The position numbers were made by a program, and so were the translations under genes. Below the pieces are notes generated by a model. That model was given only the letters and a program-made list of their open reading frames with translations. It made no database searches and was not told the origin of the DNA. This document shows positions 4,643 through 9,213 of a stretch of DNA of 9,627 bases, one piece after another. Position 1 is the first letter of the stretch. The number at the start of each line of letters is the position of its first letter. The DNA is from an uncultured archaeon (GTDB taxonomy: Archaea > Iainarchaeota > Iainarchaeia > Iainarchaeales > 0-14-0-20-30-16), in NCBI GenBank assembly GCA_964565725.1, contig CAZMGA010000011.1, forward strand, positions 3,115 through 12,741. Direction: 5' to 3'.

Positions 4643-5074
4643 CTAATCACTATAAATACTTTCAATTGCTTTATTAAATATTATTAGTAAAATATATATT
4701 TCATCTTCTGTTAAAGATATTTGAATTGAATTTAAAGTGTTGTCTTTTCCTTGTTGGTTTATTTTTATAATATATCCAAAATTATTTTTAGATATTTTTA
4801 AAACAGCATTTTTTACTACTGTTTCATTAATAGATTTGTTAGGATCATGAAATAATTGTAATTCATTTTTTTGTTCTTTAAAAGTAATGCAAATTTTTGC
4901 ACAATCTTGTGCACTTAATTTAAATATTTGTTTATTTGCCCAATCAAATTTCTTTTCTTCTATTTGTTTTGCAAATTCTAAAAATAAACTTTTCTTTTCT
5001 TTATTGAAATCTACGCTTAATGCAGAACCTGTTTTAGAATTATTTGGTTTATAAATTACATAATTATTTTTCAT
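4643..5074 (-). CDS. Whirly-like (Whirly/PUR-alpha-fold) single-stranded nucleic-acid-binding protein
   Basis: I prefer the ATG at 5072-5074, preceded by an SD-like AGTGA with a 5-nt spacer. The ORF track instead starts at the GTG at 5083, which overlaps the upstream TAG by 1 nt. Blocks 'YKPNNSKTGSALSV', 'FLEFAKQ...KKFDWANKQIFKLSAQDCAKI', 'LQLFHDPNK', 'VLKISKNNFGYIIKINQ' and 'ISLTEDEIYILLIIFNKAI' are colinear with the conserved blocks of plant Whirly proteins as I remember them. Confidence 0.6.
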   Translation of the reverse strand: MKNNYVIYKPNNSKTGSALSVDFNKEKKSLFLEFAKQIEEKKFDWANKQIFKLSAQDCAKICITFKEQKNELQLFHDPNKSINETVVKNAVLKISKNNFGYIIKINQQGKDNTLNSIQISLTEDEIYILLIIFNKAIESIYSD

Positions 5075-5082
5075 ATTTGTCA

Positions 5083-5520
5083 CTAAATCATATTATTTTT
5101 TAACTTTAATTTTTTAACCATTAATTCTGGATTATCAATTTCTTTGATTACATTATATTTTGGTATAATTTGAAAATATATGTGTTCGTCTTTTTTTGTT
5201 TTGTGTATTACTTCAAAGCTTTCTGGGCTAAAACTAATTTTTAATAATTTAATTGCTCTTTTTATTAATAACATCATATCTTTGTCTTCATCTTTATTTA
5301 ATTCTGTTATATCTGTAATGTGTCTTTTTGGAGCTACCAATAAATGACCATAACTTAAAGGATTTTTTTTTGCAATTATATAAGCTGTATTTCCTACATG
5401 AATTATTAATTTTTGTTTTTCAGTATAATTACAAAAGTAGCAATTTGTTTTTTTATTTTCTTTATTTTTATTTTTCTTTTCATTCAAACTTTGTAATTGT
5501 GCATAAATTATTTTTGCCAT
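5083..5520 (-). CDS. HIT (histidine triad) superfamily protein with a non-canonical HxYxQ motif
   Basis: SD AGGAGAT (5524-5530) lies in the 12-nt gap after the endA stop. 'CYFCN', '...NTAYIIAKKNPLSYGHLLVAPKRHITDITELNKDE' and '...EHIYFQIIPKY' follow the HIT-family layout (CxxC, GH-hhV-PK-H, then the triad strand). The triad reads H-I-Y-F-Q-I-I instead of H-h-H-h-H-h-h (encoded at 5164-5184, checked on the DNA). Confidence 0.8.
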   Translation of the reverse strand: MAKIIYAQLQSLNEKKNKNKENKKTNCYFCNYTEKQKLIIHVGNTAYIIAKKNPLSYGHLLVAPKRHITDITELNKDEDKDMMLLIKRAIKLLKISFSPESFEVIHKTKKDEHIYFQIIPKYNVIKEIDNPELMVKKLKLKNNMI

Positions 5521-5532
5521 AATATCTCCTTT

Positions 5533-6051
5533 TTATAATTTAATTCTATTCATTTTGTAATATGTAATATTTAAGTCATTATCAATCATAGCAAGAATTA
5601 AATTTGTGTTTAATCCTTGGGCCATTCTTATACTTTTAGAAAAAAAGTTTGGTTTAATACTCTTATTCTCATCAACAATTGATATAACATATTTAGTATG
5701 TGCTTCATCAATTTTTTTACCTAAAGGATAAACCCTAAAATCAAATCCAAATTTTAAACCAGTTTTAATAATATAGCCTAAAGATTTTATATCTTTATAC
5801 ACTAAATAGTTATTAAAAAAGAATTTATTGTTTTTTATTTGTTTTTTTATATATTCTTCTGTGCTTATAGGTTTATTTCTATGAATCAAATCTAATCTAT
5901 TATTTTCTAATAAATATAATGTTTCATAAATGTCTAAAATCAAATAATTTTTGTTTTTTATACCATATCCTTTAGATATTAATAAAGAGGAATAATTAAG
6001 ATTAGTTATTATTGTAGAATTGTTTTTTAACTCTCCTAAGTATTTTTTCAT
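5533..6051 (-). CDS. endA: tRNA-splicing (intron) endonuclease, short homotetramer-like form
   Basis: The 172-aa product aligns without gaps over its C-terminal half to Methanocaldococcus jannaschii EndA as I recall it: 'YLVYKDIKSLGYIIKTGLKFGFDFRVYPLGKKIDEAHTKYVISIV...IRMAQGLNTNLILAMIDNDLNITYYKM' against '[45 protein letters not shown]...VRVAHSVRKKLLIAIVDADGDIVYYNM'. The N-terminal domain is also colinear. Confidence 0.9.
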   Translation of the reverse strand: MKKYLGELKNNSTIITNLNYSSLLISKGYGIKNKNYLILDIYETLYLLENNRLDLIHRNKPISTEEYIKKQIKNNKFFFNNYLVYKDIKSLGYIIKTGLKFGFDFRVYPLGKKIDEAHTKYVISIVDENKSIKPNFFSKSIRMAQGLNTNLILAMIDNDLNITYYKMNRIKL

Positions 6052-6140
6052 TTTTATCCCTTAAGTCTTACTAATATTATACATTATATATACACGAAAG
6101 TATTTAAATGTTTAAACATTATATCTATTGAGGTGGTTTT
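6052..6140. promoter_or_regulatory. divergent promoter region between endA(-) and the CBS gene(+), containing a 14-bp perfect palindrome
   Basis: 89-nt AT-rich spacer with several TATA-like elements (TATATATA 6086-6093, TATTTAAA 6101-6108, TTTAAA 6111-6116). It contains the perfect palindrome AATGTTTAAACATT (6107-6120), SD GAGGTGG (6130-6136) for the plus gene, and TTAAGGGATA (complement of 6055-6064) for endA. Confidence 0.4.
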
Positions 6141-7181
6141 ATGGTAAGTTGGTACGATTTAACAAAAAAACATTTTAAAACATTAGAATCTAGTAATACT
6201 ATATCTAAAATAATTCCTATTTTAAAGAAGGAAAAAGAAGTATTAATAGTAGATAATGGCAAATATAAAGGTATAATTTTGAGAAAAGATGTATTGAAAC
6301 AAGACCTTTTATTGTCTGAAACAAAAATATCTAATTATATTTATAAACCACCAATTTTAGAAAAAAAACATTCTAATTTGGATGTTGCAAAATTTTTTAT
6401 CGAAAGTGGGGCAATATTTTTACCTGTAATTGAGTCTAGTAAAGTAGAATCTATACTTTACAGAGCAGATTTCTTAAATTTTATTGTTTGTGAAGATTTA
6501 AAAAAAGTTAAAGTTTTAGATTTAATGAATATTAACCCAAAAGTAATTTCTCCAGACTATAATTTAGCAAAAGTAATATCTGTATTTCAAGAAAACAATT
6601 TGTCTAAGTTAGTAGTTTATGATAAAAAAATTTTAGGTGTTATTACATTATCAACAATATTAAATTATTTTATGAATACAGATAAATTAACTAAAACTGT
6701 ATTACAAAATACTTTAGTAAAACAAGTTATGAAAGAACCAATTATTATAAATAAAAATGCATCTATATCTGAATTAATGGATTTTTTTATAAACAAAAAT
6801 GTATCTTCAATAATTGTTGCTAATAATAATGATTTATTAGGAATAGTAACAAAAACAAATATTTTAGAATATTATATTTATAAAAATAGTAAGGACTCTA
6901 AAAACTCAGTTATGCAAATATCTGCAAAATTTTCAGGTTTAGATAAAAAAGATATTGAAGATAGATTTGAAGCATTACAGAAATATATTGATAAGGATTC
7001 TAAGATTTTTGTTTATTTTAAATTAGGTAAAGAAAAATTTAGAGGTTTGCCTTTAGTAAATTGTAGAGTGCGAGTTTTATTGCCTAAGAAAAATTTTAAT
7101 GTTTCTGTTGAAAGTTGGGGTATTGAACATTCAATTGAATTAGCAATACAAAAACTAAAAAGAATGATGGGTAATTTTTAA
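6141..7181 (+). CDS. four-CBS-domain (two Bateman modules) protein with a C-terminal HPF/RaiA (S30AE)-like domain
   Basis: Four CBS repeats are recognisable, for example '...KVISPDYNLAKVISVFQENNLSKLVVYDKKILGVITLSTILNYF' and 'VMKEPIIINKNASISELMDFFINKNVSSIIVANNNDLLGIVTKTNILEYY'. The last ~89 aa (6912-7178) read 'MQISAKFSGLDKKDIEDRFEALQKYIDKDSKIFVYFKLGKEK...VNCRVRVLLPKKNFNVSVESWGIEHSIELAIQKLKRMM'. This parallels the beta-alpha-beta-beta-beta-alpha pattern of bacterial HPF/YfiA. The CBS call is confident and the HPF-like call is tentative. Confidence 0.85.
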   Translation: MVSWYDLTKKHFKTLESSNTISKIIPILKKEKEVLIVDNGKYKGIILRKDVLKQDLLLSETKISNYIYKPPILEKKHSNLDVAKFFIESGAIFLPVIESSKVESILYRADFLNFIVCEDLKKVKVLDLMNINPKVISPDYNLAKVISVFQENNLSKLVVYDKKILGVITLSTILNYFMNTDKLTKTVLQNTLVKQVMKEPIIINKNASISELMDFFINKNVSSIIVANNNDLLGIVTKTNILEYYIYKNSKDSKNSVMQISAKFSGLDKKDIEDRFEALQKYIDKDSKIFVYFKLGKEKFRGLPLVNCRVRVLLPKKNFNVSVESWGIEHSIELAIQKLKRMMGNF

Positions 7182-7207
7182 GCCTTAATATAAGGCTTAT
7201 TTTTTTT
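7179..7207. terminator. stem-loop plus T8 tract between convergent genes
   Basis: TAAGCCTTA (7179-7187) and TAAGGCTTA (7191-7199) are exact reverse complements around the loop ATA. Eight T (7200-7207) follow on the plus strand. The stem begins in the CBS gene stop codon, and the T-run overlaps the stop of the minus-strand gene (7206-7208). An oligo-T tract is the established archaeal termination signal. Confidence 0.55.
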
Positions 7208-7730
7208 ATTTTAATCTCATTAAAATATCTCTTTGATTTTCTAAAATATCTTGCATTATTTTTCTTAAAACTTCTATTTTTGCATCAATATTATCTAATT
7301 TATTATCTATATTTTTATGGCTTGAATCCAAATTTAAATTCATTTTTTCAATATCTTTTAAATTATCATTATTAGACATTTTTATTATTGATTCATTTAA
7401 ATCATTTATTTTGGTTTCTACATTTCTTACTACTTTTTCATGATCATTTATTTTATCTGTAGCCATCTCGGCTACATTCATTGCTAAATTACTTGCTAAT
7501 TTTGCCTCATCTGCATTTATTTTTGTTTTTTCTTCTGGGCTTAAATTTTGTATATCTTCTTCTGGTTTTTCTTTTTCAGAATTATCTGGTTTTTCATTTA
7601 CGTTTTGTTTTAATGCTTCATTTATTATGTCTTCATCAAAACCAATATCTTTTAACATGCTTTTAATTTCTTCATTACTTAAACCTGAGTTTCTTAAATT
7701 AGCAATTGTTTCTAACACACTATTGTCCAT
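7206..7730 (-). CDS. hypothetical protein: N-terminal UBA-like helical domain, acidic linker, C-terminal coiled coil
   Basis: 174-aa ORF. 'LETIANLRNSGLSNEEIKSMLKDIGFDEDIINEALKQ' resembles a UBA/TS-N-type three-helix module. It is followed by an E/K/P-rich linker and about 90 aa with heptad-like repeats. TTAAGGGATA sits 3 nt upstream of the ATG. Confidence 0.65.
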   Translation of the reverse strand: MDNSVLETIANLRNSGLSNEEIKSMLKDIGFDEDIINEALKQNVNEKPDNSEKEKPEEDIQNLSPEEKTKINADEAKLASNLAMNVAEMATDKINDHEKVVRNVETKINDLNESIIKMSNNDNLKDIEKMNLNLDSSHKNIDNKLDNIDAKIEVLRKIMQDILENQRDILMRLK

Positions 7731-7797: not shown

Positions 7798-9213
7798 ATG
7801 GATTATCCGTATGGCCCTTGGAAAGAATTATTTGTTGGAATTTATGATGATTATAGTCTTAGACTTTTATTTAATCAAGATGGGTTAATAATTTCTGAAA
7901 TTTTAAATAAAGATAAAACTAAAGCTGTATTATCATTAACTCAAATTATGGGTGTTTTTGGAGATTCCGAAGCATTTATAGAATCAATATCTAAAAGTGC
8001 AATATATTTAAATATTCATGACAATTCAAACTCTAAATATCTTTTATTGCAAAGTAATCAAGAAATTTTAAATTATAATGTTAAAGACGTAAATGACTTT
8101 TTAAATTATCAATACAAAGATTTAATGAGAGACTTGAGAAATTTACAAAATATTTCCGAATCTTACGAAATAAATGTTAAATTATATAATGAATTGCCAA
8201 ATGATTTAAAAACAAAAATATTTTCTAACCCTTTAAATTTATTTTCATTTATAACTAAACCTAAAGTTACAAGTTCACAAAAAGTAAAAGAAGAAATAAA
8301 TAAAACTTTATTTTTAGGTTTTTATAGAAATAATGATGAAAAAGTAATAGAAAAAATAGAACAATTTTCAAATACTTTAATAATAGGTAATAATAAATTA
8401 ATATTTAAAACAATGATTGAAAATTTTTCAATTAATGGTATTAATACTGTTGTTTTTTCAGATTCTAAAGATATTATAAATATGAAATATCCTAATGAAG
8501 ATAAAAATATTTCTAATAAAAATATAACACCTATAGGCTTTCCGCTAAAAGAAAAAATTATTGGCGAGGACATTTATGTAAATTTATCTGAATTACCTTT
8601 AAATAGTTTTTTAGAATTAAATAATATTGACGATTCAAATGTAGCGGATTTGATTAATGATATTATTTCAAATAAAAAACCAAAAACACTAGATAATTTA
8701 ATTAAAGAATTAGATGAATTTAAATATAATGATAAATATAATTTTTATGATGTACATTTAACTATTAGAATTTTAAATATTATAAAACAAAAAAATCCAG
8801 GAATTTATTTAGGAGATAGTTCAGTTTCCAATTTAAATAAAGATAACAACAATTTAGGTACTATAAATTTTATTAAATTAAATAAATTAGACACTGATAA
8901 AATAATAATTTATAACATAATTAAAAAGATTGTGAATAATATAGATGATAGACCCGTAGCAATTTTTGTAGAAAATTTGCAAGATTACTTTAATAATGAA
9001 AATGATAATATAACTAAAGATTTTTATAATTTGTTTAACAAAAAAACTCAAAATTATTTTATTTTTAGTGTTTTAACTGAAATTGATTTGCCTAAAGAAT
9101 TTAGTAGTAATTTTTCTGCAAAGTTATCTTCAGTTGATGATTTAGATATAGGCTTAAATTTAAAAGATTCTAAACCTTTTAGATTTATTTTAAGACCTAC
9201 TTTATCAAAGTGA
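7798..9213 (+). CDS. HerA/FtsK-clade (DUF87-like) P-loop NTPase homologue with deviant Walker A and B motifs
   Basis: The 471-aa ORF follows the layout of archaeal DUF87/HerA ATPases. 'LFLGFYRNNDEKVIEKIEQFSNTLIIGNNKLIFKTMIENFSINGINTVVFSDSKD' sits where 'lG....v.l....l.rH.lI.G.TGSGKS.....l.e.....g..vlifD..gEy' would be. 'PVAIFVENLQDYF' corresponds to 'p.llviDEAH.f', 'YFIFSVLTEIDLP' to 'l.lvTQrPsdl', and the terminal 'FRFILRPT' to 'v.vrpR.T'. Stop TGA at 9211-9213. Confidence 0.55.
   Translation: MDYPYGPWKELFVGIYDDYSLRLLFNQDGLIISEILNKDKTKAVLSLTQIMGVFGDSEAFIESISKSAIYLNIHDNSNSKYLLLQSNQEILNYNVKDVNDFLNYQYKDLMRDLRNLQNISESYEINVKLYNELPNDLKTKIFSNPLNLFSFITKPKVTSSQKVKEEINKTLFLGFYRNNDEKVIEKIEQFSNTLIIGNNKLIFKTMIENFSINGINTVVFSDSKDIINMKYPNEDKNISNKNITPIGFPLKEKIIGEDIYVNLSELPLNSFLELNNIDDSNVADLINDIISNKKPKTLDNLIKELDEFKYNDKYNFYDVHLTIRILNIIKQKNPGIYLGDSSVSNLNKDNNNLGTINFIKLNKLDTDKIIIYNIIKKIVNNIDDRPVAIFVENLQDYFNNENDNITKDFYNLFNKKTQNYFIFSVLTEIDLPKEFSSNFSAKLSSVDDLDIGLNLKDSKPFRFILRPTLSK

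Follow-up and report, generated by a model that had tools for sequence, protein, structure and literature searches.

HibA is a ribosome hibernation factor of Pyrococcus abyssi (Q9UYR4) and Thermococcus barophilus in which four CBS domains are fused to an HPF domain (Madru et al., Nat Commun 2026, PMC13324472; preprint of October 2025, 10.1101/2025.10.11.676729). The P. abyssi protein is 392 residues long, with the CBS domains in residues 1-269 and the C-terminal domain in residues 270-392, and once bound to the ribosome it fills the mRNA channel as well as the tRNA sites A, P and E (PMC13324472); according to the data-availability statement of that paper, PDB entries 9SR9-9SRF and 9T7H hold P. 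abyssi HibA on the 70S ribosome. HibA was found in 47% of archaeal genomes, and stand-alone HPF-like forms in archaea occur mostly in DPANN (PMC13324472). The same architecture was independently reported from Haloferax volcanii as AHA, which carries two adenosine monophosphate (AMP) molecules between CBS3 and CBS4 and puts a long CBS3 loop ('loop 3') into the peptidyl-transferase centre (PTC), the HPF-like domain of the archaeal complexes sitting at the same 30S site as bacterial HPF (EMBO J 2026, PMC13728122). Related CBS tetrads are those of the CBS-only archaeal hibernation factors Dri from Pyrobaculum calidifontis (PDB 9E6Q/9E7F) and of SriA-D from Methanosarcina acetivorans (PDB 9ZNF/9ZNG/9ZNI) (PMC13454478). 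Here we describe a gene encoding a 346-residue protein, at positions 6141-7181 (+) of a 9,627-nucleotide stretch of DNA (the window) from an uncultured archaeon of the order Iainarchaeales, and we propose with considerable confidence that it encodes a compact member of this HibA/AHA family of archaeal ribosome hibernation factors.

The open reading frame (ORF) is intact in the ORF listing of the window. A first-pass annotation of the window, made from its letters, had flagged positions 6912-7178, which are the final 89 codons of this ORF: residue 258 (Met, codon 6912-6914) opens the flagged stretch, residue 346 (Phe) ends it at 7178 and a TAA stop codon follows at 7179-7181. That annotation had proposed a fusion of four CBS domains to an HPF/RaiA-like domain, and its description of the sequence proved correct. 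Four CBS stretches were detected in the protein (PF00571, E 7.7e-31), an NCBIfam scan returning generic CBS matches only. Comparison by phmmer identified P. abyssi HibA as the best solved relative (chain 9sr9_H, E 2.7e-22), residues 14-342 being aligned with residues 16-367 of HibA. In placing the S30AE/HPF family in bacteria and plastids, the first-pass annotation has been overtaken by the archaeal HibA and AHA. Because an archaeal S30AE/HPF fusion has thus already been published, the fusion itself is not a discovery, and the 346-residue protein is a further, trimmed member of the HibA/AHA architecture.

To characterize the fold, the full-length protein was modelled with AlphaFold2 (mean predicted local distance difference test score, pLDDT, 86.5; predicted template modelling score 0.82) and the model was submitted to Foldseek. 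The top match was the Sri chain 9znf_4 (E 4.4e-18), with 9zng_7, 9e7f_3 and 9e6q_3 ranked lower, and the CBS tetrad matched those of Sri, Dri and AMPK-gamma by fold, with E values of 1e-12 to 1e-18 (about 1e-14 for AMPK-gamma). HibA was not among the 50 listed matches, perhaps because the fold library ends on 2026-04-08. This search was swamped by CBS tetrads and uninformative on the C-terminal domain, which was therefore modelled alone (91 residues, alignment built from window and locus DNA, pLDDT 88.6). In both models the order is a strand (258-262), a helix (269-281), three strands (288-300, 303-314 and 317-326) and a final helix (328-342), and it reproduces the beta-alpha-(beta)3-alpha pattern that the first-pass annotation had read from the sequence. 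When this model was compared with the PDB, ranks 1-36 were all HPF, RaiA/YfiA, protein Y or plastid pY, with template modelling (TM) scores of 0.6-0.81; examples are Listeria HPF (E 1.6e-5), E. coli HPF (6h4n_x, TM 0.80, root-mean-square deviation 1.7 Å) and Vibrio HPF (TM 0.81). The first unrelated folds, double-stranded RNA-binding domains (dsRBDs), appeared from rank 37 onward at E values of about 0.02, and neither an ACT nor a ferredoxin-like structure was found among the 50 best matches. Since the first 36 ranks are all of HPF type and no ACT match was obtained, the modelled C-terminal domain is assigned to the HPF/RaiA fold.

CBS-ACT combinations exist in other proteins, and the C-terminal domain could accordingly have been an ACT-like or other ferredoxin-like ligand-binding domain, which would make the protein a purely metabolic sensor. 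The fold search of the isolated domain refutes this reading; the modelled strand order also differs from that of ACT (beta-alpha-beta-beta-alpha-beta), the sequence profiles point to S30AE and HibA, and we leave the metabolic-sensor reading scarcely any probability.

The profile evidence is as follows. PF02482 (Ribosomal_S30AE) scored 23.0 bits (E 1.4e-4) on the 89-residue piece, just under its curated gathering cut-off of 23.7 bits, and among the 25 homologues found it matched 12 of the 21 that were aligned (E<=0.01), one homologue (P0016) carrying a precomputed PF02482 match. When a profile of the C-terminal domain was compared with PDB chains, it matched P. abyssi HibA (9sr9_H) at E 3.5e-12 and 9l96_a, a 406-residue 4xCBS-HPF chain of a ribosome entry, at E 2.6e-8; a literature search turned up no relevant paper on PDB 9l96, and 9l96_a is cited solely as another solved relative. 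The same profile aligned with the E. coli HPF chains over their whole length (positions 6-91 against 6-89), at a non-significant E of 0.15. For E. coli HPF, the sequence given in the first-pass annotation agrees with PDB chains 2rql_A and 6h4n_x, and the distal helix 'S.E..G...A....I.KL.RQL', which it had described as shared, is indeed paired in the hidden Markov model alignment with E. coli HPF. The resemblance is greater than chance would give. The C-terminal domain also carries, at residues 299-305, the motif KFRGLPL, which corresponds to the second archaeal-specific insertion (324-KFRGVHL-330 in HibA). Because this motif matches the HibA insertion and corresponds to a gap in E. coli HPF, the domain is, judged by its sequence, of the archaeal HibA type and not a recent bacterial import. 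In the profile search of 1.84 billion proteins described below, two very long proteins, P0078 (2354 residues) and P0133 (1763 residues), were among the top matches; they contain 7-8 CBS-matching stretches but are not HibA-like, and no HPF domain was aligned in them.

To compare the domain with the ribosome-bound structures, the HibA contact tables (Supplementary Data 1, PMC13324472) were mapped onto the 346-residue protein through a MAFFT alignment. Residues E298-K299-F300-R301, in the insertion between strands 2 and 3, are identical to HibA E323-K324-F325-R326, which contact 16S rRNA positions G496 (E. coli G530) and A1461 (E. coli A1492) and the protein uS12 (PMC13324472). HibA Y317 (contacting helix h31), R336 (h31 and uS9), R366 (h44) and Q277 correspond to Y292, R311, R341 and Q259, respectively. 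In an alignment of 16 sequences of the clade described below, E298, K299, F300 and R341 are invariant whereas Y292, R301 and R311 are retained in 15. Altogether, 42 HibA contacts of the C-terminal domain could be mapped, 9 of them to identical and 11 to similar residues, as against a domain identity of 25%; the identical contact residues are concentrated at the contacts with h18, h44 and uS12.

These contacts bear on a second alternative, that the CBS tetrad makes the protein a regulator acting away from the ribosome, such as a transcription factor resembling the CBS-only HhpR of Pyrococcus yayanosii, its C-terminal alpha/beta domain being a generic nucleic-acid binder. The archaeal CBS-tetrad family CM-3/HhpR is indeed a transcription regulator, two homologues are named 'predicted transcriptional regulator' by JGI, and the dsRBD proteins found by Foldseek would suit a nucleic-acid binder. 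However, the JGI name is an automatic label, the dsRBDs come only after the 36 HPF-type structures, HhpR-type proteins have no HPF domain, and the best sequence match, CBS part included, is HibA and not HhpR, Sri or Dri. The conserved C-terminal residues are those that contact 16S rRNA and uS12 in HibA. We consider a non-ribosomal regulator very improbable, and retain the assignment to the HibA/AHA family.

The 346-residue protein belongs to a compact clade of 18 proteins of Iainarchaeota ("Diapherotrites") type, made up of this protein, 15 metagenomic homologues of 349-370 residues and the proteins P0026 and P0027; the closest relatives that bear a name are 'Candidatus Diapherotrites archaeon' MAGs. 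Its members are 42-54% identical to the 346-residue protein, and the 16-sequence alignment (with P0002-P0016) has 48 invariant columns. Among 1.84 billion proteins the clade accounts for four representative clusters at 50% identity, after which the score falls from 311 to 207 bits. Sequences of Archaeoglobi and Thermococci are close to it at 30% identity, which may reflect slow evolution or transfer. It is also present in genomes of the same genus and of the sister genus (G001-G006), the genome CG08_land_8_20_14_0_20_30_16 (L001) encoding the same protein as a same-genus genome (G003). Among 40 sampled relatives, the domain was detected in every one of the 6 that belong to its family and in another 4 from its order; 11 of 41 sampled genomes of the order have a copy. 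One of these 4 is a 98-residue frame (G035:C9:614828-615106) that matches the HibA C-terminal profile (E 1.3e-5) without a CBS module; judged by its sequence, it resembles a gene for an archaeal HPF/RaiA-like protein that stands alone, which would fit the DPANN stand-alone forms already reported (PMC13324472).

Set against P. abyssi HibA, Archaeoglobales homologues and the longer HibA-like proteins that other families of its order encode (L024-L026, open frames of 379-392 residues), the clade proved to be trimmed in three places. Firstly, the CBS3 loop equivalent to the one that HibA inserts into the PTC has 17 residues in all 18 members, 8 fewer than the 25 of P. abyssi HibA. In HibA, loop 190-207 enters the PTC and Tyr195 stacks on the universally conserved A2834 (PMC13324472); the trimmed loop has lost its counterparts of HibA R190 and E201-P205 and carries a lysine at the Tyr195 position. 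In the 127 other full-length representatives of the family this loop has 25 residues in 76 cases and 20 or fewer in 5. Secondly, the beta1-alpha1 region of the C-terminal domain is 6-7 residues shorter than in HibA. The idea that this shortening co-evolved with a loss of the archaeal C-terminal extension of uS19 was rejected, uS19 of this genome being a protein of 130 residues with a long basic C-terminal tail. Thirdly, the protein ends 5 residues past Arg341, the equivalent of HibA Arg366, and the other clade members end 5-8 residues past it, except P0016 (14 residues). The tail of the 127 other representatives has a median length of 25 residues and is of 10 residues or fewer in 14 of them; in HibA, tail residues 369-386 run toward the mRNA exit channel and contact h23, h24, h28, uS7, uS11 and eS28 (PMC13324472). 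The two reductions do not occur together in any of the 127. It should be noted that the long CBS3 loop is a feature of the characterised members, and the tail one of P. abyssi HibA, and that both lie outside the published definition of the family.

The column of the C-terminal Phe346 (7176-7178) is invariant in the 16-sequence alignment, and this residue is the last one in 14 of the 16 proteins, whose typical end is RQMGDVRF; P0015 and P0016 carry a few residues beyond it. HibA F384 packs on eS28 and uS7 and lies about 18 residues past Arg366, whereas Phe346 lies 5 past Arg341.

The trimming could also be read as decay, the protein being a HibA remnant in a reduced genome, and the loss of the loop, of the tail and of the nucleotide-binding Asp residues marking a loss of function. 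The 8-residue shortening of the loop, a tail of 5 residues where the median is 25, the altered ribose-binding positions described below, the small size of the genome (0.59 Mb) and the patchy detection of the gene in the order (11 of 41 sampled genomes) would all fit such a remnant. By contrast, the ORF is intact, plausible expression signals are found upstream, each of the 6 other family genomes sampled has the gene, and both the single loop length and the 48 invariant columns, decoding-centre contacts included, are kept across proteins that are just 42-54% identical. Because the loop length is fixed and these columns are invariant at that level of divergence, the trimmed form looks, in the alignments, like a stable derived design kept by purifying selection. 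There is thus only a slim chance that the gene is a decaying remnant, and a trimmed member of the HibA/AHA family is the reading that we keep.

Regarding the nucleotide pocket, I235 and T237 of CBS4 match the HibA contacts of adenosine triphosphate (ATP), I254 and T256. The ribose-contacting D259 of HibA is replaced by Asn240, a position occupied by Asp in 12 and by Asn in 4 of the 16 aligned clade members. In CBS3, the ribose-binding Asp of the motif G-h-h-T-x-x-D (HibA D181) is Thr172, this position being T, N or S in all 16 sequences, and the equivalent of HibA T137 is Asn. Since both ribose-binding Asp positions are altered, adenylate binding by the 346-residue protein is possible, as far as its sequence tells, but not assured. 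HibA itself binds AMP, adenosine diphosphate and ATP with dissociation constants of 12, 65 and 113 µM, respectively, and nucleotides left its conformational classes on the ribosome unchanged (PMC13324472). The hibernation role put forward in the first-pass annotation is supported by the homology to HibA and AHA, the P. abyssi, T. barophilus and Hfx. volcanii proteins having been shown to bind 30S/70S ribosomes, to inhibit translation and to preserve ribosomes in stationary phase, and the architecture has no different supported function there; its further claim that the fusion directly couples energy charge to ribosome silencing is unproven even for HibA.

Taken together, these data suggest the following mode of action. 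Residues 258-346 would sterically occlude the A/P-site channel of the 30S subunit as HPF does, the E-K-F-R hairpin, Tyr292, Arg311 and Arg341 holding the decoding-centre nucleotides and uS12. The CBS disc would lie on the 50S side, a single polypeptide thus bridging both subunits, and the bridging protein would block the binding of tRNA and mRNA and preserve idle 70S ribosomes. Because the CBS3 loop is 8 residues shorter and the tail is absent in the clade, silencing would be exerted mainly by the HPF core, with little or nothing inserted into the PTC or the mRNA exit channel. In vitro, HibA and a HibA variant without both archaeal insertions each reduced translation about ten-fold, whereas the N-terminal CBS module alone left it at the control level (Fig. 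6a source data, PMC13324472). As HibA inhibits without its insertions and its CBS module has no such effect by itself, the trimmed protein, whose HPF core is intact, should inhibit as well. The analysis establishes the architecture, the fold, the homology to HibA in both modules and the identity of the decoding-centre contact residues; from these we infer that the 346-residue protein would bind the ribosome and inhibit translation and that it may respond to adenine nucleotides, the last with the reservation that the altered pocket imposes.

Several observations weigh against this interpretation. Identity to HibA was found at just 9 of the 42 mapped contact residues, and the parts of P. abyssi HibA that are rich in ribosome contacts, namely the PTC loop, beta1-alpha1 and the 369-386 tail, are reduced or absent. 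PF02482 stays below the Pfam cut-off for the isolated domain as well as for the full-length protein (19.6 bits). The replacement of Asp259 by Asn and the clade-wide loss of the CBS3 Asp weaken the nucleotide-sensing part of the proposal. Finally, the sequence comes from a small metagenome-assembled genome (MAG) of DPANN type, whose ribosome may differ from those of Pyrococcus and Haloferax.

A more specific idea is that the clade forms a distinct 'minimal HibA', a bacterial-style short HPF tethered to a CBS disc that has dispensed with the PTC loop and exit tail and partly with the ribose-binding Asp residues. We put it forward tentatively and hold it to be rather unlikely. Such a protein would possibly be insensitive to nucleotides or tuned to another ligand and, if the idea were true, it would suit an episymbiotic DPANN cell with a host-dependent energy supply.

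The window has a G+C content of about 20% and lies on contig 11 of a 593,677-bp genome in 34 contigs, estimated to be 86% complete. The HibA-type gene is single-copy: a C-terminal profile built from its own clade matches the genome solely at this gene (E 2.5e-34), and a profile search of the contigs did not reveal a stand-alone HPF-like copy. Another clear CBS tetrad, such as a Sri/Dri-type paralogue, was not found in the 0.59-Mb genome, which holds one further weak CBS match below the cut-off. An SBDS homologue is encoded in the same genome. The coordinates of the features are given in Table 1. The TATA-like and Shine-Dalgarno-like elements upstream of the gene are a putative promoter and a putative ribosome-binding site, as far as can be judged from the sequence, and the hairpin with its T-run may likewise be a candidate terminator.

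Table 1. Coordinates, in the window, of the HibA-type gene, its domains and contact motifs, and the elements that flank it.
Feature	Positions	Strand	Basis
TATA-like element TATTTAAA	6101-6108	+	about 33 nt 5' of the ATG; read from sequence
Shine-Dalgarno-like GAGGTGG	6130-6136	+	4 nt 5' of the ATG; read from sequence
HibA/AHA-type coding sequence, stop codon included	6141..7181	+	intact ORF; full-length phmmer match to 9sr9_H
CBS1, about residues 6-53	6156..6299	+	PF00571 at G000:C11:9270-9413; modelled secondary structure
CBS2, about residues 66-118 (weakest repeat, with invariant D110-F111)	6336..6494	+	Pfam stretch at relaxed threshold; modelled helix/strand pattern
CBS3, about residues 127-178	6519..6674	+	PF00571 at C11:9633-9788
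Shortened PTC-loop equivalent, residues 177-193, FMNTDKLTKTVLQNTLV	6669..6719	+	alignment with HibA
CBS4, residues 193-245	6717..6875	+	best PF00571 stretch (193-245)
HPF/RaiA-fold domain, residues 258-346	6912..7178	+	AlphaFold2 model, Foldseek, domain profile, PF02482
E298-K299-F300-R301, equivalent to HibA E323-K324-F325-R326	7032..7043	+	insertion between strands 2 and 3; identical residues
Hairpin AAGCCTTA..TAAGGCTT followed by a T-run	7180..7207	.	lies between the 346-residue gene and the convergent gene 7206-7730 (-)

Within the genus, the genes for the tRNA-splicing endonuclease EndA and the HibA-type protein, orf174 and orf471 form a syntenic group; in the sister genus, too, orf471 adjoins the HibA-type gene. 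Synteny was dropped as functional evidence: relatedness explains it, it does not extend past close relatives, and the neighbours include no ribosome-related gene. The neighbouring genes are nevertheless recorded here. EndA is encoded at 5533-6051 (-) and adjoins a gene for a HIT-family protein (5083-5520, -), whose best Pfam match is CwfJ_C_1 (E 9e-12), above HIT itself (3.4e-9). At 4643-5083 (-), a 146-residue protein matches Whirly, known as a family of plant-organelle proteins (PF08536, E 1.8e-14, 54 bits where the cut-off is 23); this is by far the most conserved gene of the neighbourhood, 79-83% identical to its counterparts at three related MAG loci, as against 47-60% for the others. On the other side of the HibA-type gene, a 471-residue ORF without a Pfam match (7798-9213, +) is 46-55% identical within the genus and 25% identical to its counterpart in the sister genus (L021, L022).

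The practical value of these results is in annotation: in the sources the gene so far bears no label other than 'CBS domain-containing protein', 'histidine kinase' or 'predicted transcriptional regulator', and a real, only recently recognised fusion could be recovered from sequence alone. The new point is comparative, in that a DPANN lineage has retained the HPF core and the decoding-centre contacts but has shed both the PTC loop and the tail. Such a series of natural deletions is in line with the in vitro result already published, which places inhibition in the HPF core and not in the CBS module or the insertions, and the compact protein could serve as a small construct for structural work.

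Comparison with the known systems places the protein as follows. With the bacterial short HPF/RaiA proteins (PF02482) it shares the fold, a similar domain size (89 residues against 95 in E. coli HPF) and a distal helix ending ..KL.RQ.. By contrast, its domain is fused to a CBS tetrad and is neither a stand-alone protein of about 95-115 residues nor a long HPF with a dimerisation domain; it has the hairpin insertion of the archaeal proteins (KEKFRGLPL), opposite which E. coli HPF shows a gap when aligned, and its sequence similarity to the bacterial proteins is marginal by both of the measures given above. With Sri and Dri it has in common a closely similar CBS-tetrad fold, all of them being CBS modules that are ribosome-bound in the solved structures. 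Nevertheless, Sri and Dri have no HPF domain, Dri contains two tetrads, and their phmmer similarity to the protein is E 7e-9 or weaker, against 2.7e-22 for HibA. AHA shows the same two-module architecture and the same proposed mechanism of steric occlusion; compared through its published description, its entry (PDB 12DM) having been absent from the search hits, it differs from the 346-residue protein, which has a short loop and changes at both ribose-binding Asp positions. The closest system is HibA, with the same domain order and with sequence homology that spans both modules, from which the present protein differs in its length (346 against 392 residues) and in its PTC loop of 17 instead of 25 residues, its shortened beta1-alpha1 region and its lack of a C-terminal tail.

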